From Candidatus Methanomethylophilaceae archaeon (GTDB lineage: Archaea > Thermoplasmatota > Thermoplasmata > Methanomassiliicoccales > Methanomethylophilaceae), in assembly GCA_944320495.1 (NCBI GenBank), contig CALUHR010000009.1, positions 32,001 to 96,000 on the forward strand: 64,000 nt of DNA, in the 5' to 3' direction. The position numbers were made by a program, and so were the translations under genes. The notes below the pieces were generated by a model. The model saw nothing but the letters and a program-made list of their open reading frames with translations. It was not told the DNA's origin and did no database searches. Below, in pieces: positions 12,622 to 56,905 of this stretch; the first letter of the stretch is position 1; every line of letters starts with the position of its first letter.

Positions 12622-13398
12622 TCAGATGGCTCCGCAACCTTTGGCGGCGCCGATGCACTCCTGGCATCCGTCCCCGATCTTGGGGAGGCCGCGCTCCAGG
12701 AGCATGAGGACGTTGTTGAGGCACTCGGCCATTGTCCTGTTTACCATGTCGATGTCCACGGGCTCGTCCTTCCAGACGTCATAGTCCGTGATGGTGGCGA
12801 GGCTGCAGTAGCACAGGCCGAGCTCCCTGGCGAGCTGGCACTCGGGGACCACGGTCATGCCGATGATGTCGGCGAAGTGCCTGAACATGTTGCTCTCCGC
12901 CATGGTGGAGAACCTGGGTCCTTCGATGCAGAGGTAGGTTCCTCCGAGGTGGTGCTTGAGGCCGAGCTCGGTGGCCGTGGCGTCGAAGATGCCGTTCAGA
13001 TACGGGCAGAACGGGTCCGGGATGGAGATGTGGACCGCCCTGTCGTCGAAGTAGGTGTAGTCGCGCCTCTTGGTGAAGTCGATGAACTGGTCGGCGATGA
13101 CGAGGTCCCCGGGGGCGTAGTCCTCCTGCAGGGATCCGACGGCGCAGGCGGAGATGACGTACTTGCATCCCAGCTCCTTCAGCGCCCACATGTTGGCCCT
13201 GTAGGGGACGTTGGTCGGGGGGTGCTGGTGCTGCTTGCCGTGGCGGTAGAGGAACGCGACCTCCACGCCGTTAATCCTGCCTATGAGTATGGGGTCGGAG
13301 GGTTTGCCGTACGGGGTGTCGGGGAAGACCTCCTCGATCATCTCGAAGGTGTCCGGGTTGTAGATCCCGGTGCCTCCGATGATAGCTATCTTGGGCAT
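12622..13398 (-). CDS. mtnP: S-methyl-5'-thioadenosine/thioinosine phosphorylase
   Basis: IIGGTG, TPYGKPS, RHG..H..PP, EGPRFST and GMTVVPE motifs. Confidence 0.93.
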   Translation of the reverse strand: MPKIAIIGGTGIYNPDTFEMIEEVFPDTPYGKPSDPILIGRINGVEVAFLYRHGKQHQHPPTNVPYRANMWALKELGCKYVISACAVGSLQEDYAPGDLVIADQFIDFTKRRDYTYFDDRAVHISIPDPFCPYLNGIFDATATELGLKHHLGGTYLCIEGPRFSTMAESNMFRHFADIIGMTVVPECQLARELGLCYCSLATITDYDVWKDEPVDIDMVNRTMAECLNNVLMLLERGLPKIGDGCQECIGAAKGCGAI

Positions 13399-13433
13399 GT
13401 CCGGTTTATTGTGACGCTGATAATAATATGATT

Positions 13434-13472
13434 GGAACGCGGACCGCTCACTTGTTGAAGGGTCCGCGTTCC
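13434..13472. terminator. 12-bp perfect inverted repeat downstream of the hisB-F-IE-PHP block
   Basis: GGAACGCGGACC-N15-GGTCCGCGTTCC. Confidence 0.6.
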
Positions 13473-13485
13473 TGGAACGGTTTCA

Positions 13486-14136
13486 TCAGGCGATGTGCCT
13501 GGTGGCCTCGTAGGGCGTGACGTGGAGGGCCCTCTCGGCCTCCTCCGGGGTCATGCCGGCCCCGAGGGCGACGACCAGCGCGGCCTTCTCGTCCATCAGG
13601 TTCTCCGGCGCGTGGGTGTCGGAGTCGATGACCATGTCGGCGCCCACGGCGCGGGCCATGTTGACGACGTGCCCGTTGGTGATGTTGTGCCCCATGCGGC
13701 CCGTGACCTCGATGAGGACGCCGTTGTCCTTGGCGAGCTGGGTCTCCTCAAGGGTGATGAACCCGGGGTGGGCGAGGACGTCGATCTCCGGATCCTCGGC
13801 GGACGCGCGGTTGGTGCCGGGGGCGACCGGCTCGGTGACTGTCTCCCCGTGGACCACGATCCACTCAGCCCCGTACTTCCTGGCGAGCTTGGCGACGTGC
13901 CCGATCTTGGACGGCGGGACGTGGGTGATCTCCACGCCGGGGATGACCTTGATGTAGTCCTCGCACAGCTCCACGGCCTTGGCGACGTTGGATGCGACGA
14001 ACTCCACGTTCGTCATGTCCACGTGGTCGGTGATGGCGATGACGTCGTGTCCGAGGACCATGGCCCTCCTAACCAGCTCGGCCGGGATGAGCTCCCCGTC
14101 GCTGAAGACGGTGTGGGTGTGGAGGTCGGCCCTCAT
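13486..14136 (-). CDS. PHP-family hydrolase, probable histidinol-phosphate phosphatase
   Basis: DLHTHT..SDG, ITDH, VHGET and DSDTH motifs; ATGA overlap with hisIE. Confidence 0.8.
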   Translation of the reverse strand: MRADLHTHTVFSDGELIPAELVRRAMVLGHDVIAITDHVDMTNVEFVASNVAKAVELCEDYIKVIPGVEITHVPPSKIGHVAKLARKYGAEWIVVHGETVTEPVAPGTNRASAEDPEIDVLAHPGFITLEETQLAKDNGVLIEVTGRMGHNITNGHVVNMARAVGADMVIDSDTHAPENLMDEKAALVVALGAGMTPEEAERALHVTPYEATRHIA

Positions 14137-14738
14137 TGCGCCCTCTCCCACAGCTTGCGGTATACCTCGGACATCGGGAGGCCGGTCTTCTCGATTGCGA
14201 CCATGGTGTGGTAGATGAGGTCGGCGAGCTCCCAGGCCATCTCGTCGGTGTCCTTGTCCTTGATGGCGAGGGCGAACTCGCCGGCCTCCTCGATGACCTT
14301 CTTGCACATGCGGGTCTCGTCGTTGTACAGCTTGCAGGTGTAGCTCTCCTCGGAGGGGTTCTCGAGCCTGTCGATGAGGACGCGTCTGAGCTCAGGGATG
14401 ATCGCCATGGTCTCCTCGGTGGATCCGAGGATGACCTCGTCGAAGCAGGAGGGCTTGCCGAGGTGGCAGGCGATGCCCCCGACCTGCTCGACCCTCGCCA
14501 GGAGGGTGTCGCCGTCGCAGTCGGCCTGCAGGGATTTGATCTTCTGGAAGTGCCCGGACTCCTCGCCCTTCTTCCACATCCTCTGCCTGCTCCTGGACCA
14601 GAAGTGGGTGTATCCGGTCTCCTTCATCAGGCGGACCGCCTCCTCGTTGGCCCAGGCGACCATGAGCACCTCGTTGGTGATGTAGTCCTGGACGACCACG
14701 GGGATGAGTCCGTTCGCATCGTACTTCAGTTCGCTCAT
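14133..14738 (-). CDS. hisIE: Bifunctional phosphoribosyl-AMP cyclohydrolase / phosphoribosyl-ATP diphosphatase
   Basis: [24 protein letters not shown] and ACH motifs, followed by KKVIEEAGE and ELADL.YH. Confidence 0.93.
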
Positions 14739-15487
14739 CTTACCTCGACTCCCTTGTCTCTGAGATACTGCTTGACCTCCGCCACGGTGCACTCGCCGTA
14801 GTGGAAGATCGATGCCGCGAGCGCGGCGGATGCGCCGGTCTGCGAGAACACGTCGTAGATGTGCTCCATGCTGCCGCAGCCGCCGGACGCGATGACCGGA
14901 ATGCTGACCTCGTCCGTCACGGCCGAGGTGAGCGGTATGTCGTAGCCGTTCTTGACGCCGTCCGTGTCCATGGACGTGAGGAGGATCTCCCCCGCCCCCA
15001 GGTCCTGGGCCCTCTGGGCCCATTCGATGGCGTCGATGCCGGTGCCCCTGGTGCCCCCGTGGGTGAAGACCTCCCAGTGGTCGCCCACGCGCTTCGCGTC
15101 TATGGCCACGACCACGCACTGCCTCCCGAAGCTCTCGGCGCATTCGCCGATGATGGACGGGTCCTTCACGGCGGCCGAGTTCACGGACACCTTGTCCGCC
15201 CCGGCGTTGAGCGCATCCCTCATGTCGGTCACGCTCCTGATGCCCCCTCCGACGGTCAGCGGGACGAACAGGTTGCTGGCCGTGCGTGTGACGATGTCGA
15301 GCATGGTCTGCCTCGTCTCGAGGGAGGCGGTGATGTCCAGGAAGGTGATCTCGTCGGCGCCCTGGGCCTCGTACTCCGCGGCCATGGTGGGCGGGTCCCC
15401 GACCTCCTTGAGTCCCTTGAAGTTGATCCCCTTGACGACCTTGCCCTCCTTCACGTCCAGGCAGGGTATGATCCTCTTCGCCAGCAT
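14735..15487 (-). CDS. hisF: Imidazole glycerol phosphate synthase cyclase subunit
   Basis: [24 protein letters not shown] and ALAASIFH motifs. Confidence 0.97.
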
Positions 15488-15491
15488 GGGA

Positions 15492-16040
15492 TCACCCGAT
15501 GACCTCGCGGTCCTTGGTCGAGAGCTCGGTGCCCCTCGGCCTCACGGCCTGGGAGAGCGCCTTGCCGACGGCCTTGAACGCAGCCTCCACGATGTGGTGT
15601 TCGTCGAATCCCCTGATGACCACTATGTGCAGGGTCATCCCGGTGGACATGGCGAGGCTCCTCATGTAGTGCGTGTAGAGCGGGTCCGGGAGGTCCACGT
15701 CAGCGTACGGGCGGTCGACCAGGTCGAGGGACGCCATGACGAGGGCGTCGTCCATGGGCACCACGGCAGTGGCCATCCTCTCGATGGGGCCGTCGCCGAG
15801 GGCCTGCCTGAGGGCCTTGCCGACGGTGATGGCGCAATCCTCGATGATGTGGTGGTCGTTGTCCCCCTCCGCGCTCATCGTGAGGTCGAAGGATGCGTAC
15901 CTTGCGAGCGTCTCGGTCATGTGCTTCAGGAACTGGATGTCGCTGGTGACGTCGAAGACGCCGCTACCGTCCAGGTCCAGGGAGACCGAGATGCGGGTCT
16001 CCCTCGTGCTGCGCTCAATCTGGGACTTCCTGGCGCTCAT
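15492..16040 (-). CDS. hisB: Imidazoleglycerol-phosphate dehydratase
   Basis: RSTRET.I, HHIIED, PMDDAL and [10 protein letters not shown] motifs; TTATAA at 16067-16072. Confidence 0.95.
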
Positions 16041-16093
16041 GTTAACGTCCACGCGATGTACCGCGCTTATAAGGGCATTTCTGAGCCGATGCT

Positions 16094-16510
16094 TCGGGCC
16101 CTCTCGGAGACGATCTCGTTGGACGTCACGATGTTGAGGCGCGGGCAGTCGGCGCAGATGCCGAGGTCCCCGCTGTATCCCTCGAAGACGTACAGCGCCT
16201 TCAGCAGGCCGCTCTCCTTCACGAAGTTGCAGATTCCGCAGAGCGACTCGGTGACGTCCGCTCCGTTGGAGATCTCGTCGGCCATCCTGGCTATCTCGGC
16301 GTAGAAGTCGTCCTTGTAGGCGCTGCGGTCGATCAGGTTGTTCCCGCCCCGCATGCCCTTGAGGTACTGGGACACCGCTGCGCTTGTGACGCCGAAGAGC
16401 TTGGCCACCTGTGTCTGGGTCATGCCGTGGCTGGTCACCAGGTCCCTGGCGAGCGCTCCGCGCGCTGTGGGCAGAATGTGTGTGACTATGAGCTCGCACG
16501 GCATCTTCAT
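16094..16510 (-). CDS. Archaeal HTH transcriptional regulator (COG2522-like); ends at CGA 16096-16094 (standard-code end 16067)
   Basis: MPCE..V..ILP..R..LA, Q..VA..FGVT.AAVSQY and C..C motifs. Confidence 0.8.
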
Positions 16511-16558
16511 GAGCGGTGTAACGACGTTAACGACTTCAAGATATCGGATGCCAGCGAC

Positions 16559-17179
16559 TCACTTCGGGGCGTTCTGGATCTTGGATGAGACGGCCTGTGT
16601 CTTCCCGGAGAACGCCACCCCATACAGAACGGTCATCCCATCCATGCCGTGCGCGTAGTTCCTGTCGACGATTTGGCCCAGGGCCCTCTCGGCGGCCGAG
16701 CGTAGCTCGTCCTTCCCGATCCTGTCTCTAGTCATGCGCTTAATCTCGATGACGACGTTTGGACCGCTCCCCCTTAGACGCTTCAGTCTGATGTCGTGAC
16801 ACTCGTCGCCTGATTCGAAGTCAGCGGTGATGTCGTAGTCCCTGAAAAGGCTCATTAGAGCCCGGTCACGAACGTCTGGTACGAGTGATCGTTGTCCAGC
16901 ACCCTGCCGCTGATGGCGCTCTGGAGCAGATCCCTCGGGCACATTCTCCATGCGTCCTGTGTCGTTGCAGCGGATGGCCTTGGACAGTCCCCTCATGGAT
17001 GACGACATCCCTTCCGCATCGATTCTGCGTATGATGGTGTCCGCGAACACGCCGTACATCCCCCTATCATGTATCCTGGGGGCGTAACCCGTGTCGGTTG
17101 GTACGGCTATCAGATATCTAGAAACGCGAGCACGTTGTAGATTCCGTTGCCGGCAATCTGCAGCATCTAGACCGGATGC
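16559..17179 (-). pseudogene. Degenerate remnant of an AAA-ATPase-like / PD-(D/E)XK nuclease gene
   Basis: ESGD...DI.L, VVIEIK, ALGQIVDRNYAHG and YGVAFSGK motifs. The N-terminus is missing, the central part looks scrambled, and there is an internal CGA at 16891-16889. Confidence 0.7.
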
Positions 17180-17209
17180 CTATCCGATGCCTCCGCAAAT
17201 TATTCGTTT

Positions 17210-17229
17210 TTCCTAATTATATTTAGGAA
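17210..17229. promoter_or_regulatory. Perfect palindrome, candidate repressor operator of the ABC uptake operon
   Basis: TTCCTAA-ttatat-TTAGGAA in an AT-rich stretch about 75 nt before the SBP ATG. Confidence 0.6.
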
Positions 17230-17304
17230 TACCATAAAAATAAATATGCCCGGTCCATCCCATCGGTGTCGGGAAACGGAGGTTCATGGAAAAAGGGTGA
17301 ATCC

Positions 17305-18453
17305 ATGAACAGCAAAATAGTGGTAGCCGTGGTGGCCGTCATAATCGTGATGGCGGCTGCGGCGGCTGTAGTGTTGACCAGGGATGGTGGGGAGGACGGT
17401 ACCGTCGAGGGAGTCACCGTCACCGATAGCTCGGGACGCGAAGTGTTCGTTCCGACACCTGTGGAAAGGGTGGCCATAACCGATCCAACCATCGTAGAGA
17501 TATTCGCACAGGCTGTAGGCGAGGGCTGGGAAGACTATGTGTGCCTGCTCCCGCAGGACATCGAAACCAGGGAGCCTGCGAAGTGGGCTCTGCTCAAGGA
17601 GACCTATCCGGAACTGGCCGACGTCCCGCTCTGTGCCGATGTGTATGGAACGGGTGCAATACCTGTCGATGACATCCTCAACTCGGAGCCCGACCTGGTG
17701 CTTCTCGCCGGCGCGACGGTGAACTATCTGCCCGGAGCGGAGGAGCAGATATCGGCTCTCGGTGACATACCCTGCATCTATCTCGAATTCTACGACAAGT
17801 CGTTCACCGACGGCATCGCCGAGGCCAACTACGGCATCCTCGGGGAGATCTTCGGGACGCAGTCGGTGGCCGACAGGATCGTGGACTACTACAACGAGAA
17901 GGTCAGCATCGCGAAGGACCGCATAGCATCCGCAGACAGGTCCTTCACGTACTACGTCGAGCTCCCGGGCTCCGACCCATCCGTCTACGGCAGCGTCGTG
18001 GCCATGGGATGCCCCGAGTTCGATATCCTGGGCGGCACCAACGTGTGCAGCAATCCGGCAGGAGTCGACATGGAATGGAACATCGAGAAGATGCTCCAAT
18101 CAGGGGACGGCGGTCCGGACTACATCGTCCTCATCAGCACCCCCTACTACAACGGGCCGGCGACCCTCGGATACGGATCTACGGCCACGGCGGAAGAGAT
18201 CCAGGATTCGTTCGAACCGTACCTCGAGAGGGCCGGATGGGACAACTTGAAGGCCGTCGAGGAGGGGAACGTCATGATCAACTACGGGGAGCTGAGGAAC
18301 AGCGCCCTCGGACTCATCGACCTCTACTCCGTCGCCGCGATGATCTATCCCGATCTGTTCACACTCGAGGAGGTCGAGCAGATCGCGGAGGACCTGGACG
18401 CCATGACGCCATTCGGATTCGAGGGTGTCTGGTACTACCACGTCGGAGCCTGA
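17305..18453 (+). CDS. Iron-siderophore/cobalamin-type ABC substrate-binding protein, membrane-anchored
   Basis: N-terminal TM; VTDSSGREV..P..VERV, EPDLV and W..LKAVEEGNV motifs. Confidence 0.88.
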   Translation: MNSKIVVAVVAVIIVMAAAAAVVLTRDGGEDGTVEGVTVTDSSGREVFVPTPVERVAITDPTIVEIFAQAVGEGWEDYVCLLPQDIETREPAKWALLKETYPELADVPLCADVYGTGAIPVDDILNSEPDLVLLAGATVNYLPGAEEQISALGDIPCIYLEFYDKSFTDGIAEANYGILGEIFGTQSVADRIVDYYNEKVSIAKDRIASADRSFTYYVELPGSDPSVYGSVVAMGCPEFDILGGTNVCSNPAGVDMEWNIEKMLQSGDGGPDYIVLISTPYYNGPATLGYGSTATAEEIQDSFEPYLERAGWDNLKAVEEGNVMINYGELRNSALGLIDLYSVAAMIYPDLFTLEEVEQIAEDLDAMTPFGFEGVWYYHVGA

Positions 18454-18458
18454 TCCCA

Positions 18459-19499
18459 TTGGGGGCCACAGCCGGGCGCGAGCTATACCGCAGGATGACG
18501 AGCCGCAGGGTCGCGATGATAGCGATGTTGGCGGCGATGGCGGTGGTACTGTTCGTAGTGAACTGCACATTCTTCATGAGATGGAGCCCGCTGGAGGCCC
18601 TCCAAACCATATTCGACCCGGGTTCGGTGAGCAGGTCGCTGGATTCGGTGGTCTGGAGCTATCGCATCCCCGAGAGCTGCTTCGCCGTACTGGTGGGGGT
18701 GGCCCTCGGGATGGCCGGTGCTGAGATGCAGACGGTTCTGAACAACCCCCTGGCGGAGCCCTACACCCTGGGGATATCCATGGCGGCCGCATTCGGAGCC
18801 GCCCTGGTGATAGGCTTCGGGTTCGGGACATCGTTCCTGGGCGGCTATGCGATGATCGTCGGGGCGTTCCTCATGTCCATGGTGGCCTGCGGGGCGATCT
18901 ATGCCGTCTCCAGGAGGAGGGGATCGTCGAGGACCACCATCATACTCACCGGGGTGGCGATGCTGTTCCTGTTCCAGGCCCTGGTGAACGCCGTTCAGTC
19001 CCTGGGTGGTAAGGAGGTGTCCAATTCCATCACTTTCTGGATGTTCGGCAACCTGGCCAGGTATCCGGACGAGATGGGATACGTGCTCGTACTGCTCATC
19101 GTCGTGGTCCTTGTGGCGGCGCTGTTCGCCATGAACATGTGGAAGCTCTCAGCGCTGAAACTGGGGGATGCCAAGGTCTACAGCATGGGCGTGGACGCTT
19201 CCAGGCTCAGGAGGAACACGATCATCGGGATATCGGTGGTCACGGCGGTCGCTGTCAGCTTCACCGGAACCATCGGATTCGTCGGGCTCGTGGGCCCCCA
19301 TGTGGCCAGGATGCTCGTGGGGGACGACCAGCGCTTCCTTCTGCCGATGTCCGCGCTTTGCGGCGCGGTGTTCCTCTGCGCCTCCTCCGTGCTGATCAAG
19401 GGGCTGGACCTCAGTCTCCCGGTGGGTGTGGTCACATCTCTGATCGGCGTTCCGTTCTTCCTCTATCTCGTACTGACTCGCAGGAGGTCGCTGGCATGA
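18459..19499 (+). CDS. FecCD/BtuC-family ABC permease
   Basis: RIPE, G.EMQTVLNNPLAEPYTLGIS and GTIGFVGLVGPHVAR motifs. TTG start inferred; alternative ATG at 18495. Confidence 0.92.
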   Translation: MGATAGRELYRRMTSRRVAMIAMLAAMAVVLFVVNCTFFMRWSPLEALQTIFDPGSVSRSLDSVVWSYRIPESCFAVLVGVALGMAGAEMQTVLNNPLAEPYTLGISMAAAFGAALVIGFGFGTSFLGGYAMIVGAFLMSMVACGAIYAVSRRRGSSRTTIILTGVAMLFLFQALVNAVQSLGGKEVSNSITFWMFGNLARYPDEMGYVLVLLIVVVLVAALFAMNMWKLSALKLGDAKVYSMGVDASRLRRNTIIGISVVTAVAVSFTGTIGFVGLVGPHVARMLVGDDQRFLLPMSALCGAVFLCASSVLIKGLDLSLPVGVVTSLIGVPFFLYLVLTRRRSLA

Positions 19500-20263
19500 C
19501 ACTCAGGACCGTGAATCTGAGTTTCTCATACGGCGGAGACCGGATACTGAGGGAGGTGTCGATAGAGGCCGGTTCCGGGGTCACCGCCCTGTTGGGTCCG
19601 AACGGTGCGGGGAAGTCCACGCTAGTGAAGTGTCTGTCGGGAGTCATCCGCCCGGATGGGGGTACGGCCGAATTCAACGGCATTGACCTGCTGGATACTC
19701 GTCGCGGAAGTCTTAGAATGGGCTATCTGGCACAGGATCTTCCGGCGGTCTCGGAGACCAATGTTCTGGAGATGATGCTCCTCGGGAGGATCAACTCCCT
19801 CGGCCTCGAGGTGGGCGTGGAGGACCTGGACAAGGCTTACGGCGCATTGGAGGACGCCGGCATAGAGGATCTGGCGGCCAGGGACTTTAATGAACTCAGC
19901 GGTGGGCAGCGTCAGATGGTCATGGCCGCCCAGTGTCTCGTCGACGATCCCGATCTGATAATACTTGACGAGCCGACGAACAACCTGGACATCCGCAGGG
20001 AGTTGGATTTGTTCGAGATGATGACCCGTTACACGGAGGAGCACGGCATCACCACACTGATGGTCCTGCACGATGTGAATTATGCCTCCAGGTTCGCGGG
20101 AAATGTCGTCGTTATGAGGGATGGCAAGGTGTATTCCACCGGCACTCCTGAGGAGGTCATCACGGAGGGGATGCTCCGCGATGTCTACGGCGTCGAGGCC
20201 AAAGTGGGGAGAGATGTCTTCGGGAATCCCCATGTGGAGGTCCTCCATTCGATCCGTCTCCGA
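19496..20263 (+). CDS. FepC/BtuD-type ABC ATPase; ends at CGA 20261-20263 (the standard code fuses it to the next gene)
   Basis: GPNGAGKS, LSGGQRQ, LDEPTNNLD and VLHD motifs; 255 aa up to the CGA. Confidence 0.88.
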
Positions 20264-20302
20264 TCCCATTCCACAGTCCAAACACGATCGGAAGTGTATG
20301 TT

Positions 20303-22099
20303 ATGAGTGAAAGCAAGGAGAAGAGACAGGGGAGGTTCTCGAAGCTCGCCGGTTATGCCGGAGGTCACAGGTACCTCACCTACGCGGCCATGATCCTGTC
20401 CGGATTGAGCGCGGCCATCTCCGTGGTGCCCTTCTATTACATCTGGAAGATGATCGAGGAGGTCCTCCGTGTGATGCCCGACTACGACCGGGCGGTCGGT
20501 CTGGCGAACGACGGATGGATGGCCCTAGGATTCACTGCCCTGGGGGTGCTGGTGTACATCGCGGCGCTCATGTGCTCCCATGTGGCGGCGTTCCGTGTCG
20601 CGAAGAACATCCGGAAGACATGCATCGAGCATGTCATCGAACTACCCCCGGGCGCGTTCGACATGATGGGATCGGGCAAGGTCAGGAGGACCATACAGGA
20701 TTCCGCCTCCGCCACCGAGACGTATCTGGCGCATCAGTTCCCGGATATGGCGGGCAGTGTCGTTCTGCCGCTAGCCATCCTGGTGATGCTGTTTCTGTTC
20801 GATTGGAGGCTGGGCATCGCCAGCCTCGTGCCCGTGGCCCTTGCCTTTCTGGTCATGTGGACCATGGTCGGCAGCAAGGTCATGAAAGAGCATATGGCGG
20901 CATACCAGGAGGCTCTCGGAGATGTCAACAAAGAGGCTGTGGAATATGTCCGCGGTATATCGGTCGTCAAGGCGTTCCAGCAGACCGTCGAGTCGTTCCA
21001 GGCGTTCAAGGAGTCGATACTCAGGTACAGCGAGTTCGTCATCAAGTACACAAGGTGGTGCAGGGGCAGGATGTGCCTATTCGTGGTCGCATCGAACCTG
21101 GCTTTCGCCTCTATTGTGATCATGGCGTTGGCCATCGACGGCTCTCTTGATTGGACGCCGGAGTTCCTCTCCGACTTCCTGTTCTATGTGATATTCACCC
21201 CGCTGGTCGGGGTGCTCCTCATGAGGATAATGTTCGCCAGCAATGAGGGCTACATCGTGGATGACGCGCTGTCGAGGGTCGATGACCTCATGGCCATCCG
21301 GCAGCTCCCCGAGCCAGATGATCCCAAGATCCCTTCCGATTCGACACTGAGGTTCGAGAATGTCACATTCACCTATCCCGGGGCGGACCGCCCGGCGGTG
21401 GATTCGTTCTCGCTGACGATGTCACCCGGTACCGTCACTGCGCTGGTGGGTCCGAGCGGCAGCGGCAAGAGCACCGTAGCCAATCTCGCCTGCAGGTTCT
21501 GGGATCCACAGTCCGGCAGGGTGATTGTCGGTGGCGTCGATCTCCGGGAGATCGGCGGGGCAAAGCTGGGCGAGATGATCTCGTTCGTGTTCCAGAGTTC
21601 CCATCTCATCAAGGGGACGCTGGCCGAGAACGTGAGAATTGCCAGACAGGACGCCTCTGTCGAGGAGGTGCTTGCAGCGCTTCATATGGCGCAGTGCGAT
21701 GACATACTGGCTAAGCTCCCGGAGGGTCTGGAGACGAATATAGGCCCAAGAGGCGTGTACCTCTCCGGGGGAGAGGTCCAGAGGGTGGCGATCGCACGCG
21801 CGATTCTCAAGGACTCCCCGATTGTGATACTCGACGAGGCCACGGCCTTCGCCGATCCCGAGAACGAGTACCTTGTGCAGCGTGCCTTTGAGAACCTATC
21901 CAAGGACAGGACAGTCCTGCTCATAGCGCATCGTCTCACGACAGTACGGGATGCCGACCAAATCTGCGTCATGAGGGACGGCCGCATTGTGGAGGTCGGG
22001 ACGCACCCAGAGCTGTTGGAGTCTCGTGGGGTTTACAGCAGGATGTGGAGCGACTACCAGCAGGCTCTTTCGTGGAAGGTTCAGGGGGCGGTGCAGTGA
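20303..22099 (+). CDS. ABC half-transporter (TMD + NBD), IrtA/YbtP-like
   Basis: 6-TM domain plus GPSGSGKS, LSGGEVQR and LDEATA. Confidence 0.9.
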   Translation: MSESKEKRQGRFSKLAGYAGGHRYLTYAAMILSGLSAAISVVPFYYIWKMIEEVLRVMPDYDRAVGLANDGWMALGFTALGVLVYIAALMCSHVAAFRVAKNIRKTCIEHVIELPPGAFDMMGSGKVRRTIQDSASATETYLAHQFPDMAGSVVLPLAILVMLFLFDWRLGIASLVPVALAFLVMWTMVGSKVMKEHMAAYQEALGDVNKEAVEYVRGISVVKAFQQTVESFQAFKESILRYSEFVIKYTRWCRGRMCLFVVASNLAFASIVIMALAIDGSLDWTPEFLSDFLFYVIFTPLVGVLLMRIMFASNEGYIVDDALSRVDDLMAIRQLPEPDDPKIPSDSTLRFENVTFTYPGADRPAVDSFSLTMSPGTVTALVGPSGSGKSTVANLACRFWDPQSGRVIVGGVDLREIGGAKLGEMISFVFQSSHLIKGTLAENVRIARQDASVEEVLAALHMAQCDDILAKLPEGLETNIGPRGVYLSGGEVQRVAIARAILKDSPIVILDEATAFADPENEYLVQRAFENLSKDRTVLLIAHRLTTVRDADQICVMRDGRIVEVGTHPELLESRGVYSRMWSDYQQALSWKVQGAVQ

Positions 22100-23844
22100 C
22101 CCTCAGGGAATACGCCATGCGCAGGTTCGCCCTGTCTGAGAACGGATATCTTAATCTGAAGCGCAGCACATTGGCGGTCATCCTGCATGACATCAGTCTG
22201 ATCGTACCGGTGATGATCCTGTTCATGCTCGTGTGCGACGTCATGGGCGACAACCCATACGATTTCGGGCTAGATCCTTGGATGTACATCGCTCTGTGCG
22301 TCGTGTCTGTGGCGCTGATGTATGTGACGTACCAGCATCAGTATAATCGCACGTACTTCGACACCTATGTCGAGAGCGCGGAGGTCCGCATCTCCCTGGC
22401 GGAGAGAATAAGGATGCTTCCCCTCTCGTACTTCTCCAAGAAGGACCCTACGGATCTGACGGTCCGCATAATGGGTGATGCCACCATGCAGGAGTCGGCC
22501 ATGACCCATTGGTTCCCGGAGCTCATCGGGGCGATGATCTACACCGTCGTCATGGGAGCGTGCATCATCGTGTTCTCACCCGCCATGGGTGTGGCCTCCC
22601 TATGGCCGGTGCCGTTCGCGTTTGCCATCGTCCTCCTGTCCAAGAGGGTCCAGAGGAGGTTCGCCGACACCAAGAACCGCAGGATGCTGGAGGTCACAGA
22701 GGGAATCCAGGAGTGTCTGGAGTGCCTGAGGGATCTGAGGGGCAACAATGCCGCGAATTCTTACGCGGAAAGACTCTTCTCCAGGATGGACAGGGTCGAA
22801 GGCAGTGAGATCCGCTCCGAGCTCGCCACCGCCGTGTTCGTGGTGGGGGCCCAGCTGCTTCTCAAATTCGGCATCGTCACCACAGCCGTGGTCGGAGGGA
22901 TCCTGCTGATCGATGGATCGATCGACGTAGTAGTTTTCCTGGCGTTCCTGATATTGATCTCCAGGCTCTACGATCCGTTGAACACGGCTCTGCAAAACCT
23001 CGCCGCGATGATCTCCGCGGAGTACAACATGGAGCGTATGCAGGAGATCAATGATCAGCCCGTGATGACTGGGACGACCGATTTCCGTCCGGACGGCTAT
23101 GATATAGTGTTTGACCAAGTCGGATTTTCATACGACGGAGGGGTCACGGTGTTGGGGGACGTATCCTTTACGGCGAAGCAGGGTGAGGTCACGGCGCTGG
23201 TGGGTCCCAGCGGCAGCGGTAAGTCCACGGCAGCGAAGCTCGCCGCCAGATTCTGGGATGTAGGCTCCGGAAGGATAACCATAGGGGGCGTGGATGTCTC
23301 GACGGTGGATCCGGAGACTCTGCTGTCGTGCTTCTCGATCGTCTTCCAGGATGTGACGCTGTTCAACACCACGGTGATGGAAAACATCCGCATCGGTAGA
23401 CGCGGGGCCACTGACGAGGAGGTCCTTGCTGCAGCGAGGGCGGCCAACTGTGACGAGTTCGTGTCCAGGCTTCCGGACGGGTATTCGACTGTCATCGGTG
23501 AGAACGGTGCCAAGCTATCGGGTGGTGAGAGGCAGAGGGTGTCGATCGCTAGGGCGATACTCAAGGACGCCCCGATCGTTCTGTTGGACGAGGCGACAGC
23601 CTCGCTCGATACAGAGTGCGAGACCCAGGTTCAGCATGCGCTCTCCATCCTTGTCAGGGGCAGGACCGTCCTCATCGTGGCGCACAGGATGCGCACGGTG
23701 GAGGGTGCCGACAGGATCGTGGTGCTATCTGGCGGGAGCGTATCCGAGCAAGGTTCCCCGAGAGAACTGATGGAAGAGGATGGGCAGTTCGCCCGCATGG
23801 TCTGCATTCAGCGGTTCTCGGACGAGTGGTCCATCAGGAGCTGA
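22096..23844 (+). CDS. ABC half-transporter (TMD + NBD), IrtB/YbtQ-like
   Basis: GTGA overlap with the upstream gene; GPSGSGKS, LSGGERQR and LDEATASLD. Confidence 0.9.
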   Translation: MTLREYAMRRFALSENGYLNLKRSTLAVILHDISLIVPVMILFMLVCDVMGDNPYDFGLDPWMYIALCVVSVALMYVTYQHQYNRTYFDTYVESAEVRISLAERIRMLPLSYFSKKDPTDLTVRIMGDATMQESAMTHWFPELIGAMIYTVVMGACIIVFSPAMGVASLWPVPFAFAIVLLSKRVQRRFADTKNRRMLEVTEGIQECLECLRDLRGNNAANSYAERLFSRMDRVEGSEIRSELATAVFVVGAQLLLKFGIVTTAVVGGILLIDGSIDVVVFLAFLILISRLYDPLNTALQNLAAMISAEYNMERMQEINDQPVMTGTTDFRPDGYDIVFDQVGFSYDGGVTVLGDVSFTAKQGEVTALVGPSGSGKSTAAKLAARFWDVGSGRITIGGVDVSTVDPETLLSCFSIVFQDVTLFNTTVMENIRIGRRGATDEEVLAAARAANCDEFVSRLPDGYSTVIGENGAKLSGGERQRVSIARAILKDAPIVLLDEATASLDTECETQVQHALSILVRGRTVLIVAHRMRTVEGADRIVVLSGGSVSEQGSPRELMEEDGQFARMVCIQRFSDEWSIRS

Positions 23845-23855
23845 AACATAAAAAC

Positions 23856-23873
23856 GGGCCCCTTCGGGGGTCC
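23856..23873 (+). terminator. TTCG-loop hairpin followed by a pyrimidine tract
   Basis: GGGCCCC-TTCG-GGGGTCC-TTTCTTC. Confidence 0.7.
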
Positions 23874-24040
23874 TTTCTTCTGTAGGTCGAGGGGATGCTG
23901 GGCCATTGGCGGACCCCGAACGCACTCCAATGGCAACGACCTCCATGCAGGCGTGCGCGTGCTTTCCGTTATTGGCGTCCAGATCCTCGAGATCGTCTGG
24001 GCAGTCTCCGATTTATACCATGCACACCACTCCGCCCTCC

Positions 24041-24718
24041 ATGGACAGGGACGAGGTCCAGAGGGTCAAGACCAAGCCGACGCTGGCTGATTTCGCCGAG
24101 ATGACCCTCGCCGTCTTCATAATGGCTCTGGGCGTCATCATCACCGTCAGGTCCCTCCAGGGCGTCTCCCCGGTGTCGTCCCTCACATACGTCCTCAGCC
24201 AGGTCGCCGACGTCTCACTGGGGACGATGACGTTCATCGTCTACTTCGTGTTCGTCCTGTTCCAGTGCGCCGTCTACAGGGACAGGGGTATGACCATCAG
24301 GGTCTTCAGCCAGCTGCCGTACACGATCCTGTACAGCGTCTGCATGGATGTGCTCGATTACGCGCTCGCGCCGCTCAGCGCGGAGACGCTGGCGGGCCAG
24401 TGGGGGCTCGTCCTGATCGGATGCATGCTCACCAGCCTGGCCATCGCCATGGAGGCGGACGCGAACGTGTCGATGCTCCCGGACGACGGTCTGATGCTCG
24501 CGGTCCACAGGGCCACGAAGATCCCCCTCGGCAGGAGTATCATCGTCGTGAACATTGTGTCCATAGCGGCGGCCTTCGCCATCTCCCTGGGTGTCCTGGG
24601 AGGATTCTACGGGGTCGGTCTGGGAACGATATTCATGGCCATCGCCCAGGGGTACATAGTCAAGGCGATGACGCCGATGTTCAGAAGGTTCCGCAAGCAC
24701 GGCCATCTGGATCTCCGA
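24041..24718 (+). CDS. YczE/YyaS/YitT-family membrane protein; ends at CGA 24716-24718 (standard-code end 25663)
   Basis: ALGV, G.SP.SS, SLG, D.LM and GVGLGTI motifs; TTTATA 24 nt before the ATG. Confidence 0.85.
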
Positions 24719-24775: not shown

Positions 24776-25489
24776 TCAGGCGGTCCAGGGGGTCTCCCAC
24801 TCCCAGGGCCTGATGACCTCGGTGTACAGGGCCAGTCCGACGACGGCTCCCTCTGCCCCCGCATCGGCGAGGATCCTCGCGTCCTCCTCGGACGTGATGC
24901 CCCCGGACGCTATGACCGGGCACGGGCAGGCCGAGATGAATCCGCGGGCCTGGGACTCGTCTATTCCTTTCCTCTGACCTTCCACATCGACGTTGGTGTT
25001 CAGGACGCCGGCCAGCGGGAGGTCGCGGATCTTGTCGAACATCTCCTCCACGGTCATCTGCGCGGACTCCTGCCATCCCTTGATGGCGATGCGTCCGCCC
25101 TTGGTGTCCATGGACAGGACGATCCGTCCGGGGTGGCGGTCGGCGATCTCCGCGAGCCATTCCGGTTCCTTGACGGCCTTGGTGCCTACGACCACGCGGT
25201 CCGCCCCTGCGGCAACGAGCTCGTCGACGGTCTCGGTGGACCTGATCCCGCCCCCGACCTCTGCGGGGACGCCGCATTCCTCGATGATCCTCTTGAAGAC
25301 GGGGATGTTCCCCTCCTTCCCGAAGGCGGCGTCCAGGTCCACCAGGTGGAGGTATCTGGCGCCCTTGGAGATCCACATCTCCGCCACGGAGGCCGGATCG
25401 GGCATGACGATCTGCTGGCTGCCGGGGACTCCCCCGACGAGCTGGACCACCTGGTGGTCCATGACGTCCACCGCGGGTATGACCCTCAC
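24776..25489 (-). CDS. hisA: ProFAR isomerase
   Basis: VIPAVD, LHLVDLDAA, EVGGGIRS and IASGGI motifs; GTG start overlaps the hisH stop. Confidence 0.95.
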   Translation of the reverse strand: MRVIPAVDVMDHQVVQLVGGVPGSQQIVMPDPASVAEMWISKGARYLHLVDLDAAFGKEGNIPVFKRIIEECGVPAEVGGGIRSTETVDELVAAGADRVVVGTKAVKEPEWLAEIADRHPGRIVLSMDTKGGRIAIKGWQESAQMTVEEMFDKIRDLPLAGVLNTNVDVEGQRKGIDESQARGFISACPCPVIASGGITSEEDARILADAGAEGAVVGLALYTEVIRPWEWETPWTA

Positions 25490-26088
25490 AGTACCGACTC
25501 CGCGAATGAGATGAAGTTCCTGAGGAATGCCATGCCCGACGCGCTGCTCTTCTCGGGATGGAACTGGGTGCCGTACGTGTTGGCCTTGCGGAAGAACGCC
25601 GGCACGGTCTTCCCCTCGTATTCGGTGGTGCCGATGGTGACGTCCTCGTCCGGACTGCCGTAGTAGGAATGGACGAAGTAGAAGTGGTCGTCGGGCACGC
25701 CGTCCATCAGGGGATCCCCCGATTCCACGGTGTTCCAGCCCATGTGGGGGACGATCTCGGCCTCGAGGGGCACAACGCGTCCCTTTATGACGCCGAGTCC
25801 GGGGGACCTGCCCTCGTCGCTGCCCTCGAACAGGATCTGCATGCCTATGCATATCCCGAGCGCGGGGGTCCCGGAGAGGAGCCTCTCCATGATCTCGTCG
25901 CGGTAGGGCTCCAGCCTCTCCATCGTCTTGTCGAAGGCCCCGACGCCGGGGAAGACTATGCATTCCGCATCGAGCACTTCCCTCATGTCGGTGACCACCT
26001 CGACCCTGGCGCCGCAGTTCTCCAGCGAGCGCCTTATCGAGTACAGGTTCCCGACGCCGTAGTCGGTGAGCGTGATGCTCAGCGGCAT
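25486..26088 (-). CDS. hisH: Imidazole glycerol phosphate synthase glutaminase subunit
   Basis: DYGVGNL, PGVGAF, GICIGMQ, PHMGWN and QFHPEKS motifs. Confidence 0.96.
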   Translation of the reverse strand: MPLSITLTDYGVGNLYSIRRSLENCGARVEVVTDMREVLDAECIVFPGVGAFDKTMERLEPYRDEIMERLLSGTPALGICIGMQILFEGSDEGRSPGLGVIKGRVVPLEAEIVPHMGWNTVESGDPLMDGVPDDHFYFVHSYYGSPDEDVTIGTTEYEGKTVPAFFRKANTYGTQFHPEKSSASGMAFLRNFISFAESVL

Positions 26089-27134
26089 TCCTCGATCACC
26101 TCGGCGGTCTTCTCGAGGAGCAGGGCGTTGAGCTCCGGTGTGCCCACGGTGGGCCTGACGCAGTTCTCCGTCCTCCTCTTGGCGCCGAAGTCCCTGATGA
26201 GGATGCCCCGCTCCTTGAGGCCGGACACGAGTGCGGTGTGGTCCACGGGGGACCTGGCGAGTATGAAGTTGGCGTCGGAATGGAAGGTCTCGAACCCGAG
26301 CTTCCTGAGGCCGGCCTCGAGCTTCGGGCGCTCCTGTCTGACCATGTCGACGCTGCGGCGTATGAAGTCCTGGTCGTGCACGGCGGCTATGGCGGCCCCC
26401 TCGCTCACGGCGTTCAGCGAGTAGGGGATCTTCACGCTGGCCATCATGTCGGCCAGCTTCCTGTTGGACGCCATGTATCCGACGCGCATCGCCGCGAGGG
26501 CGTACGCCTTGGAGAAGGTCCTGGTGACGACGAGGTTGTCGAACTCCCCGACCCTGCGGATGAGCCCCTCGCCGGAGTACTCGGTGTACGCCTCGTCGAT
26601 GACGACGATGCCCTCGAACCTGGAGAGGAGGTCCTCGATGTCCCTGTCGCGGAAGCAGTTCCCGGTGGGATTGTTGGGGGACGGGATGATGGTGAGCTTC
26701 GCCCCCGTCCTGACCATGGAGTCGACGTCCAGCTGGAAGTCGTCGGTCAGATCGACCATGATCGCCTTGCCGCCGTTGCTCTTGACGAAGTAGTCGTAGA
26801 GCGAATACGATGGGTAGGGCAGGGCGGTGTCGTCCCCCCAGTTGGTGAACGTTTTGAAGATGACGTCGATCATCTCGTCGGACCCGTTCCCGGCTATGAT
26901 GGTGTCGGGGTCCAGGCCGTAGAGCTCGCCCAGGGCCTCCCTCAGGCCGCCGGAGTAGGTGTCCGGGTAGGCGTTGAGGTCCCACTCATGGGTGCGGAGG
27001 TACTCCGCCGCGGCGGGGTTCGATCCGAGGACGTTGGTGTTGGTGTCGAGGCGCACCTCGCCGTGCAGCTTGGGGTTGTAGTACTTGACGAAATCCCTCG
27101 CCGTCTCCCTCATTATGCTGCGGTCCGCGTCCAT
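26079..27134 (-). CDS. hisC: Histidinol-phosphate aminotransferase
   Basis: GNGSDE, PNNPTG, DEAY and RTFSKAYALAAMRVGY motifs. Confidence 0.95.
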   Translation of the reverse strand: MDADRSIMRETARDFVKYYNPKLHGEVRLDTNTNVLGSNPAAAEYLRTHEWDLNAYPDTYSGGLREALGELYGLDPDTIIAGNGSDEMIDVIFKTFTNWGDDTALPYPSYSLYDYFVKSNGGKAIMVDLTDDFQLDVDSMVRTGAKLTIIPSPNNPTGNCFRDRDIEDLLSRFEGIVVIDEAYTEYSGEGLIRRVGEFDNLVVTRTFSKAYALAAMRVGYMASNRKLADMMASVKIPYSLNAVSEGAAIAAVHDQDFIRRSVDMVRQERPKLEAGLRKLGFETFHSDANFILARSPVDHTALVSGLKERGILIRDFGAKRRTENCVRPTVGTPELNALLLEKTAEVIEECR

Positions 27135-27997
27135 CAGTTCACCAGCCTCTCGATGGCGGTGGTGAGGATTCCCTTGGCCCCGATCTTCTTCAGTTCGAGG
27201 ATGGTGTGGAAGGTGTCCTTGCTGTCGATGACCGCGTGGAGCGCGACGTATCCGCTGTTGCCGGCGATGTCGAGGATGGTGGGCCCCTCGAGTCCGGGGA
27301 CGATCCTCTCGGCGTCGGCGATGCGGTCCTTGGGGACGTTGGCCATGAGGTACTTCTTGCGCTCGGCGTCGATGACGCTCCTGATGGAGTCCGCGAGCTC
27401 GTCTATGGCGTCGCCGCACCTGTCCATGGCCTCGCGGCTGGTGAAGATGCAGGCCTGGGAGTCCAGGATCCTGGCGGCCTCCACCATCCTGTTCATCTTG
27501 AGGGTGGATCCGGTGGACACGAGGTCGACGATGAAGTCGGAGATGCCGATGTAGGGCATGACCTCGGCCGCGCCGGTGACCTCGATGACCTTGACGTCCT
27601 TGCCGATGGACTCGAAGTAGAGCCTGGCTATGTTGGGGTACGAGGTGGCGGCCCTGCTGCCGTCCCTGATCTGGGACGCATCGGTTATGCCACTGCTCTC
27701 GGGGACCGCCACGGCCATGTGGCAGTATCCGAACTCTAGGGGCAGCCTCTCGACCAGTTCGTATCCGGACTCGGCCACCTGGTCCTGGCCGGTGATTCCA
27801 AGGTCGATGGCTCCGGAGGCTATGAACTCAGGTATGTCCTGGGCCCTGAGGAACAGCACCTCCACATCATGGTTCCTAGCTCTGATGTAGAGCTTCCTGC
27901 CGATATCCTCTCCAAGGTCGATCCCCGACTTGGTCAGGAGCTCGACCGCCCTCTCGTTGAGGCGCCCTTTGTTTGGCACACCGAATTTAAGCGTCAT
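27134..27997 (-). CDS. hisG: ATP phosphoribosyltransferase, long form
   Basis: VPNKGRL, DLGITG.D, ATSYP and DLVSTGSTL motifs. Confidence 0.96.
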   Translation of the reverse strand: MTLKFGVPNKGRLNERAVELLTKSGIDLGEDIGRKLYIRARNHDVEVLFLRAQDIPEFIASGAIDLGITGQDQVAESGYELVERLPLEFGYCHMAVAVPESSGITDASQIRDGSRAATSYPNIARLYFESIGKDVKVIEVTGAAEVMPYIGISDFIVDLVSTGSTLKMNRMVEAARILDSQACIFTSREAMDRCGDAIDELADSIRSVIDAERKKYLMANVPKDRIADAERIVPGLEGPTILDIAGNSGYVALHAVIDSKDTFHTILELKKIGAKGILTTAIERLVN

Positions 27998-55636: not shown

Positions 55637-56905
55637 ATGGACCAGTCTGCGAAGCTCTACGAGGAGTCCCGCGGGCTCGCGCCCGGAGGCGTCAGCAGCC
55701 CCGTCAGGATGTTCCAGCCCAACCCCCTCTTCATCGCGAAGGGCCAGGGGTCCAGGGTCACCGACGTCGACGGCGAGGAGTTCATCGACCTGTGCATGGC
55801 GTACGGGCCTCTCATCGCCGGCCACGCACATCCTGAGGTCACTGCCGCGGTGCAGGAGCAGATCGTCAAGGGAACCGTCTACGGCGCCCCGTCCGAGCCC
55901 GAGCTGGCGCTAGTGAGGAGGATCGCCTCGGCGGTCCCATCGGCGGACATGGTCCGTCTGGCCAACTCCGGCACGGAGGCCACAATGCACGCGATACGCA
56001 CCGCTCGCGGGTACACGGGCAGGTTCGGCGTCGTGAAGATGAACGGCGGGTTCCACGGGGCGCACGACGCCGTCCTCGTCAAGGCCGGCTCCGGATCGGC
56101 CGAGGGGGTCCCCTCCTCGAAGGGCGTCCCGTCGGGTGCCACCCAGTACACCCACACCGTCGAGTACAACGACATCCAGGCCATGAGCGACCTCCTCGAG
56201 AAGGACAAGGACATCGCCTGTGTCATCATGGAGCCGGTCCTCGGAAACGTCGGCGTGATCCCTCCGGAGGAGGGCTACCTCGAGGAGGTCAGGAAGGTCA
56301 CGCGCGAGAACGACGTGGTCCTGATCTTCGACGAGGTCATCACCGGCTTCCGTCTCGGGCCCAACTGCGCTCAGGGCCGCTTCGGCGTGACCCCGGACAT
56401 GACCACCATGGGCAAGATCATCGGCGGCGGCTATCCCGCCGGCGCGTTCGCTGGAAGGCGCGACATCATGGAGATGGTCGCTCCGCAGGGCCCCGTCTAC
56501 GTCGCTGGGACCTTCGCCGGCAACCCGGTCACGGCCGCAGCCGGACTGGCCACCATCGACCTCATGGCCAGGGGGGACAACTATCAGACCCTGGAGAGGA
56601 GGAGCGACAGGCTCACCTCCGCGATCCGCGACGCCATGGCCGACAGCGGCGTGCCCGGATGCGTGAACTCCATCGGATCGATGTTCTCGATCTACTTCGG
56701 ACCGGAGCAGGTCCGCAACGCCACCGACGCCGAGAGGACGGACCGCGAGGTCTTCGGCAGGATGTTCCGCTACATGCTGAAGCACGGCGTCTACATGGCA
56801 CCGTCCGCACTGGAGGACAGCTTCGTGTCCATCGCGCACACGGATGAGGACATCGACACCCTCTGCGAGGCCTTCTCCGGATTCATGAGAGAGGAGTCCA
56901 GATGA
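55637..56905 (+). CDS. hemL: Glutamate-1-semialdehyde 2,1-aminomutase
   Basis: PGGVSSPVR, NSGTEAT, FDEVITGFR and GKIIGGGYP motifs. Confidence 0.97.
   Translation: MDQSAKLYEESRGLAPGGVSSPVRMFQPNPLFIAKGQGSRVTDVDGEEFIDLCMAYGPLIAGHAHPEVTAAVQEQIVKGTVYGAPSEPELALVRRIASAVPSADMVRLANSGTEATMHAIRTARGYTGRFGVVKMNGGFHGAHDAVLVKAGSGSAEGVPSSKGVPSGATQYTHTVEYNDIQAMSDLLEKDKDIACVIMEPVLGNVGVIPPEEGYLEEVRKVTRENDVVLIFDEVITGFRLGPNCAQGRFGVTPDMTTMGKIIGGGYPAGAFAGRRDIMEMVAPQGPVYVAGTFAGNPVTAAAGLATIDLMARGDNYQTLERRSDRLTSAIRDAMADSGVPGCVNSIGSMFSIYFGPEQVRNATDAERTDREVFGRMFRYMLKHGVYMAPSALEDSFVSIAHTDEDIDTLCEAFSGFMREESR

Follow-up and report, generated by a model that had tools for sequence, protein, structure and literature searches.

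In a stretch of 64,000 nucleotides from a Candidatus Methanomethylophilaceae archaeon, a gut methanogen (assembly GCA_944320495.1, contig CALUHR010000009.1, positions 32,001 to 96,000 of the forward strand), called the window in the following, the standard genetic code joins an importer-type ATP-binding cassette (ABC) ATPase of the FepC type and the subsequent ABC exporter half-transporter into one protein. On the basis of evidence that is computational throughout, we consider it probable that the locus consists of two separate genes rather than of one fusion gene and represents a local case of gene ends that are marked by the codon CGA all over the genome. The FepC-type ATPase would be terminated at CGA 20261 or, failing that, at the second CGA at 20285, and the exporter half-transporter would be started independently at ATG 20303 behind a Shine-Dalgarno-like GGAAGTG sequence. 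More generally, CGA, especially CGA followed by U, would mark gene ends in this archaeon, with aRF1, the single release factor, presumably reading CGA-U as a stop and outcompeting a weakened tRNA-Arg(UCG), while termination might be somewhat leaky, with further stops close by as a safeguard. As a gene cluster, the locus is ordinary; what makes it interesting is the genetic code.

Reading of the sequence confirmed that CGA 20261-20263, CGA 20285-20287 and ATG 20303-20305 lie in one frame, as originally noted, within an open reading frame (ORF) on the plus strand (19139..22099) that is open from end to end in the standard code. The FepC start codon at 19496 forms an ATGA overlap with the end of the preceding FecCD-family permease gene (at 19499). 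From this start, the standard code gives a protein of 867 amino acids, while a stop at the first CGA gives 255 amino acids. The 867-amino acid frame shows the Pfam domain order ABC_tran followed by ABC_membrane plus ABC_tran, and the linker between the ATPase and the exporter domains reads RSHSTVQTRSEVYV in the standard code. The FepC/FecE-type importer ATPase gene (19496..20263, plus strand, CGA end) has been recognized by ABC_tran of Pfam, by NCBIfam models and by FhuC (7lb8), and the suggestion of a typical FepC of 255 amino acids agrees with end-to-end alignments to NCBIfam models of 251-266 positions and to FhuC 7lb8. As in other FepC-type proteins, a single ABC_tran domain protein of about 250-265 amino acids is found beside a FecCD permease and a Peripla_BP_2 protein. 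Its length of 255 residues, valid only if CGA ends the gene, is in line with FecE and heme-type models of 255-261 positions and with FhuC, although the protein stays below every NCBIfam equivalog cut-off (192.6 bits for the F420-0 ABC ATPase with a cut-off of 372, 190.5 bits for FecE with a cut-off of 375).

The proposed terminator of FepC, the first in-frame CGA (20261..20263, plus strand), which has been assigned according to the genome-wide behaviour of CGA, is followed by T and by a spacer of 39 nucleotides (20264..20302, plus strand) with the codon make-up of non-coding DNA. The 12 codons of the spacer other than CGA have a mean log-odds score of -0.90 and a GC content at third codon positions (GC3) of 42%, compared with +0.41 and 77% for the two flanking genes, and merely 0.24% of the 12-codon windows inside these two genes score as low. 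Within the spacer, the second in-frame CGA (20285..20287, plus strand), the proposed back-up stop eight codons past the first, is equally followed by T, as part of CGATCG. The Shine-Dalgarno-like GGAAGTG (20290..20296, plus strand) matches GGAGGTG in six of seven positions and lies 6 nucleotides before ATG 20303; matches of this quality precede 12.5% of the predicted starts versus 3.7% of internal ATGs. The downstream gene, exporter-fold half-transporter 1 (20303..22099, plus strand; ABC_membrane plus ABC_tran in Pfam and NCBIfam), would then encode 598 amino acids and ends in TGA.

Homologous proteins and loci speak for the same division. The region that spans the junction was searched against 5.8 billion proteins, leaving out the 'longer' length class, and the best 120 of 3,935 matches were listed. 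Among the matches listed, the sole form that spans the junction is a cluster of 867-amino acid proteins, 98% identical and with 37 members, from the same species; the remaining matches listed are exporters of 563-611 amino acids that cover the exporter part alone. Since only the cluster of the species itself spans the junction, no fused form is seen outside the source species among these matches, which speaks against a fusion conserved in other organisms. The N-termini of homologous exporters of 590-600 amino acids coincide with the residues encoded from ATG 20303. Where the same gene order occurs in relatives, the junction holds stops: L041 and G054 have a TGA between FepC and the exporter that overlaps the exporter ATG, and G020 has TAA TAA between the two genes. 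In L047, FepC and the exporter share one frame as they do here, and CGA-T is followed by TGA and TAG in frame. FepC homologues in eleven genomes of the same genus have standard stops 0-13 residues past the motif that precedes the CGA here.

The rival reading, in which CGA is a plain arginine codon and a linker of 14 residues connects the importer ATPase with an exporter half in a real protein of 867 amino acids, has to be weighed against these observations. The frame is open in the standard code, the fused ORF with both its arginines is kept in 12 strain variants and, as ABC folds are known, both joined ends would lie in the cytoplasm. On the other hand, no fusion is listed outside the source species, relatives with the same gene order have stops at the junction, the codon use of the linker is non-coding and the genome-wide pattern of CGA contradicts a plain arginine codon; besides, an importer needs two ATPase copies per complex, which would be ill-suited to a tether to one exporter half. 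A genuine fusion is thus regarded as extremely unlikely.

The behaviour of CGA was analysed throughout the source genome (1.77 Mb in 14 contigs, about 61% GC, an archaeal tRNA set) in 1,264 ORFs picked by GC3 bias, with a codon log-odds score trained on the middles of the ORFs. Codons with coding-like sequence on both sides include CGA only 5 times in these ORFs, compared with 403 times for CGG and 844 times for CGT. With CGA scored as neutral, the end of the coding potential was subsequently located in each ORF. In ORFs with more than 10 codons between this coding end and the standard stop, the very next codon was the first CGA in 45 cases and CGG in 1; over the range of analyses, coding potential is followed immediately by the first CGA in 45-72 ORFs, versus 1-9 for CGG. 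A CGA between mid-gene and the standard stop is found in 285 ORFs (22%), in 157 of them within -3 to +4 codons of the coding end. With a stricter control, which demands that the next standard stop is more than 12 codons off, CGA still occurs at the coding end in 48 ORFs, at four times its own downstream density. No peak at the coding end was seen for any of 18 control codons (TGG, GGA, AGA, TCA, TTA, TGC, TGT, CAA, CAG, AAA, GAA, TAC, TAT, CGG, CGT, CAT, GAT and CCT), among them every single-base neighbour of a stop codon.

The gene ends with CGA have a context of their own. T follows in 47 of 65 coding-end CGAs (72%), compared with 23% for all CGAs genome-wide, 23% for later in-frame downstream CGAs and 29% after standard stops; the commonest codon after a coding-end CGA is TCG, which creates CGATCG. 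Equally, the next in-frame stop of any kind follows CGA ends after a median of 6 codons, but standard stops after a median of 15 codons (P about 1e-9). As both CGAs of the junction are CGA-T and the second stands eight codons after the first, the junction fits both patterns. Reading past CGA at the 157 CGA ends would lengthen 46 of the genes by 30 codons or more and 20 by 100 codons or more, with the 867-amino acid fusion and an antisense run of 315 codons through hisA among them.

A neutral loss of stop codons, with many TGA codons mutated to CGA and tolerated as short C-terminal extensions under an unchanged code, could in principle generate such ends, as CGA is one transition away from TGA, as relatives have standard stops at the same sites and as nearby back-up stops could result from survivorship. 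Because no control codon piles up at coding ends, with TGG, GGA, AGA, TCA and other one-step neighbours all lacking the accumulation seen for CGA, this explanation is disfavoured. In addition, it leaves the preference for T (72% versus 29% at standard stops) unexplained and would impose extensions of 30 codons or more at 46 of the 157 CGA ends, of 100 codons or more at 20, so that we judge it very unlikely. Taken together, the genome-wide behaviour of CGA, the stops of relatives, the spacer and the N-termini of homologous exporters support the split of the apparent fusion at the junction into an ATPase of 255 amino acids and an exporter half of 598 amino acids.

Gene ends with CGA have also been identified in relatives. 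In the window, a helix-turn-helix (HTH) domain gene on the minus strand (16094..16510), which is fused to the adjacent hisB by the standard code, ends in CGA (16094-16096) just before hisB. The same CGA end of this gene is found in six genomes, this genome, G077, G091, G068, G069 and G084, and 15 other genomes of the same genus have TAA, TAG or TGA within a few residues of the same point. The gene for a YczE/DUF6198 membrane protein (24041..24718, plus strand; Pfam and NCBIfam) has its CGA end at 24716 in common with G077, the nearest relative, with indels of 8 and 3 nucleotides within about 40 nucleotides downstream. Such frameshifting changes would be incompatible with a coding region. An assembly or sequencing artefact at the junction, finally, has a practically negligible probability, since proteins of the same 867 amino acids have been predicted on at least 12 contigs of ENA, Logan and NCBI assemblies and since CGA gene ends recur in other assemblies of the genus.

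By one and the same method, ORFs with CGA at the coding end were counted in samples of 100 kb (40 kb for G090). Two samples of this genome gave 16 of 75 and 9 of 58 such ORFs, G072 gave 4 of 65, G052 3 of 78, G089 3 of 79, G090 1 of 26 and G074 1 of 64, none was found among 72 ORFs of G031 and 69 ORFs of G067, and G058, which belongs to another genus, gave 1 of 72. The share of genes that end in CGA is thus uneven within the genus, from about 19% here to about zero in three sampled species. In coding DNA of the sampled family members, CGA occurs 0.3-0.5 times per 1,000 codons.

Several observations weigh against the interpretation of CGA as a gene end. A tRNA-Arg(UCG) gene with a cloverleaf fold is present, and CGA could still be read as arginine. 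The tail of FepC is variable among homologues, so length alone does not fix the end of the gene. At the protein level, both linker arginines are kept in the 12 strain variants, which is compatible with either reading, and the linker is variable at 2 of 14 positions among these 12 variants, compared with 3.5-3.8% in the genes, a difference that is not significant (P = 0.10). Furthermore, CGAs occur inside the aRF1 gene, in a flavodoxin-like gene and at a GmhA/GmhB junction without a start codon. Given these few CGAs within genes that seem intact, all of them with C or G as the next base, CGA is not a pure stop.

Two of these cases can be described further. On contig C13 of this genome, minus strand, near reverse-strand offset 357785, CGA-G links the end of a GmhA-like (SIS) sequence to the beginning of a GmhB-like sequence (HAD, with the FIDRDD motif) and is not followed by a start codon, which makes it a candidate for a sense CGA or for a real bifunctional protein. 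On contig C8, plus strand, near 55684, the flavodoxin-like gene has CGA-C in a conserved-looking GKTI-r-PF stretch; either this CGA is decoded as sense or the gene is broken.

The tRNA-Arg(UCG) gene (contig C13, 413317-413390; L107:1501-1574) has an A31-A39 mismatch, U32 and C38, while the tRNA-Arg(UCG) of eleven relatives of the family has C32 and a paired 31-39 in all cases and A38 in ten; positions 31-39, 32 and 38 of tRNAs are known to tune decoding. The identity of the gene to the relatives amounts to only 75-83%, and in 38 of 50 family genomes a match at E<=0.001 was missing. The single aRF1 gene (contig C2, L071:1084-2346, minus strand) has NIKS, YxCxxxF and GGQ motifs of the standard type, and its one in-frame CGA, a CGA-C at codon 78, is kept in all 18 same-genus genomes examined. 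Moreover, 31 of 32 aRF1 genes of the family (loci L248-L305) have at least one CGA, at differing arginine sites, and CGA makes up 41 of their 704 arginine codons, whereas the rarity of CGA predicts about 0.2 per gene. The YxCxxxF motif of aRF1 varies at the residue before F, with T here and in the majority of the genus, D in G067 and G074 and Q in G083. This variation is only loosely associated with CGA use, as G031 has T and yet no CGA ends in its sample.

The CGA codons kept in aRF1 genes and the deviant tRNA suggest that aRF1 and tRNA compete at CGA, a competition that possibly sets release factor levels, which suggests some leakiness. In a leaky variant of termination, most ribosomes would end at CGA 20261, and a measurable share would read arginine by means of tRNA-Arg(UCG), with FepC carrying an 8-residue tail (ended at the second CGA) and, rarely, the full fusion as products. 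The retained tRNA-Arg(UCG) gene, the in-gene CGAs of aRF1 and a few other genes and the enrichment of back-up stops past CGA ends are consistent with such read-through. With two CGA-T in a row, on the other hand, the full fusion needs two rare events, and the anticodon arm of the tRNA is deviant. Leaky reading is possible, though tentative; it refines the explanation by CGA gene ends and does not replace it.

Alternatively, the stop might be made at the level of the RNA or the ribosome, by C-to-U editing of CGA to UGA or by stalling at an unassigned CGA with subsequent rescue, and the DNA pattern is equally compatible with these processes. To our knowledge, there is no mRNA C-to-U editing system in archaea. 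In yeast, CGA is slow and eRF1/eRF3 has been proposed to act on CGA (PMC7379694), which would fit stalling and rescue. The preferred base after CGA and the retention of CGA by aRF1 genes, however, point to a competition with the release factor, and we hold an origin of the stop at the RNA or ribosome level to be unlikely. We lean slightly towards the view that the aRF1 of this lineage recognizes CGA, mainly as CGA-U, as a genuine fourth stop codon, which is seen here in the course of its spread, with the CGA of the aRF1 gene perhaps serving as a sensor that balances the release factor against the weak tRNA-Arg(UCG); the share of CGA-ended genes would then have risen from about zero to about 20% within one genus.

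If CGA ends genes, the locus can be seen as a chelate-type ABC importer with an exporter-fold pair behind it, both of them ordinary and recently acquired together in a single block. On the plus strand, a substrate-binding protein (Peripla_BP_2; 17266..18453, TGA end, true start uncertain; Pfam and NCBIfam) is followed by the FecCD-family permease (18459..19499; Pfam FecCD, E 4.8e-75), whose TGA end overlaps the ATG of FepC, and, after FepC and the first exporter half, by exporter-fold half-transporter 2 (22072..23844, about 590 amino acids, TGA end, approximate start; Pfam). The exporter-fold pair consists of two adjacent paralogous genes of about 590-600 amino acids each, with ABC_membrane before ABC_tran. 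The six genes from 17266 to 24718, which include the YczE/DUF6198 gene, comprise 2,454 codons with 140 arginine codons (CGC 29, CGG 7, CGT 11, AGA 15, AGG 78) and no internal CGA; two of the six, FepC and YczE/DUF6198, end in CGA. Counted over all six phases, these 7.4 kb contain the trinucleotide CGA 382 times. In bacteria, homologues of the exporter pair have 0-7 in-frame CGAs per about 1,160 codons, and the same rate would give roughly 7 in the cluster. The absence of in-frame CGA from the cluster is more than chance.

Five of these genes lie on a genomic island of 7,492 bp (16548..24039, delimited by blastn against the nearest relative G077; 59.2% GC versus 63.8% in the flanks) that is present or absent between close relatives and deviates in composition, whereas the YczE/DUF6198 gene lies outside. 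The island, which had been described as atypical and probably acquired, is indeed an insertion into the his operon, between an HTH-hisB-hisF-hisIE block and YczE-hisA-hisH-hisC-hisG as assigned to the flanks by Pfam, with the operon (12622-16510 and 24776-27997 of the window) on the strand opposite to the island genes. At this site, G077 has 75 nucleotides, with flanks of 98.0% (left) and 95.4% (right) DNA identity by blastn. As these flanks are 95-98% identical and the island is absent there, its gain is very recent. The island has no terminal direct or inverted repeats, no tRNA gene is found in the window and no integrase was seen among the proteins scanned with Pfam. In most same-genus genomes with both neighbours captured, hisA, HTH and hisB are contiguous.

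The zero internal CGAs in 2,454 codons that do use CGT, CGG and AGA agree with the claim that acquired genes follow the CGA rule, but do not imply that the genes adapted to it. In-frame CGA is lacking in all nine archaeal homologous loci, and eight bacterial loci have 0-7. Since all archaeal homologues examined have zero CGA, an island without CGA needs no adaptation after transfer. Judged by the identity ranks of the exporter (P0003 86-89%, P0005 76-77%, Methanomethylophilaceae and other Thermoplasmata 63-73%, Clostridia about 50%), the donor was most likely a related archaeon already without in-gene CGA, and the operon would therefore have worked on arrival. A metagenome scan gave only exporters of about 50-60% identity on human-gut contigs of about 45% GC with unrelated upstream DNA, and the Clostridia loci examined have no importer gene within 4 kb upstream of the exporter pair. 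In archaea, the exporter pair is linked to the substrate-binding protein, FecCD and FepC genes, in tandem or divergently. Locus L043, from a record titled Gudongella sp. MAG, carries an archaeal-type cluster of 64% identity that lacks CGA and is rich in AGG, so that the binning of this contig with the bacterium Gudongella may be wrong. In G113 (loci L041/L027), which is listed in the same genus, the cluster lies on DNA of 46% GC (locus L041).

Should CGA be a fourth stop codon, the transfer of operons such as this one, which can be understood only with the new code, would be confined to hosts that use it. Should CGA end genes in this genome, the standard annotation would be wrong for roughly a fifth of the genes, which would include false fusions such as the protein of 867 amino acids, C-terminal tails that are falsely long and antisense run-ons. 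Intermediate stages of a codon reassignment become directly testable through the graded use among relatives, the preferred T, the closely spaced stops, the unusual tRNA and the CGA of aRF1. No description of CGA stops in Methanomassiliicoccales was found in the literature; new here are the T context at CGA ends, the close back-up stops, the deviant arm of tRNA-Arg(UCG) and the variation of the CGA-ended share within a genus.

Codes that turn a sense codon into a stop are known from organelles (NCBI tables 2, 22 and 23), with AGA/AGG in vertebrate mitochondria, TCA in Scenedesmus and TTA in Thraustochytrium mitochondria. We know of no such change that has been established outside organelles, and if CGA does end genes here, we have found no earlier description of a sense-to-stop code change in a free-living organism. 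As in the organelle codes, an amino acid codon vanishes inside genes and appears at gene ends. Unlike those codes, it does so in a free-living archaeon of 1.77 Mb and 61% GC, which still has a gene for the cognate tRNA and a few CGAs within genes and whose close relatives differ in the use of CGA as an end. Another comparable system is the autoregulation of bacterial RF2 by an in-frame UGA in prfB. Equally, the release factor gene holds in frame a codon the reading of which depends on the abundance of the factor; here, however, the codon is CGA in aRF1, no frameshift is involved and a regulatory role would be our inference. With respect to its gene content, the locus resembles type II ABC importers (FhuBC, FecCDE, BtuCD) beside an exporter-fold pair (MsbA-like, and IrtAB/YbtPQ-like by gene context), with a binding protein, a FecCD permease, the ATPase of 255 amino acids and two ABC_membrane plus ABC_tran halves as in iron-chelate clusters, although no NCBIfam equivalog cut-off is reached.

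The misreading of CGA in yeast (PMC7379694) resembles the process suggested here in that a release factor of the aRF1 family is proposed to act at slow decoding on CGA, which differs from UGA by a single base; there, it is an error or rescue event on reporters, whereas here it would be the normal end of about a fifth of the genes. In two Njordarchaeales assemblies, CGA is absent from recognisable domains and a possible stop has been raised and left untested (bioRxiv 10.64898/2026.04.02.715157). That case differs from the present one by another phylum, by reassignment of CGG and by loss of tRNA-UCG, and Methanomassiliicoccales are not mentioned there. Using Codetta, a method that cannot detect stops, CGA and CGG have been found to be reassigned to Trp or Gln in low-GC bacteria, with CGA changed to Trp only there (PMC8629427). 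In those cases, as here, rare arginine codons of the CGN box change their meaning, but the change is from sense to sense and in low-GC bacteria, whereas CGA, if it does end genes in this archaeon, would have changed from sense to stop in a genome of high GC content.

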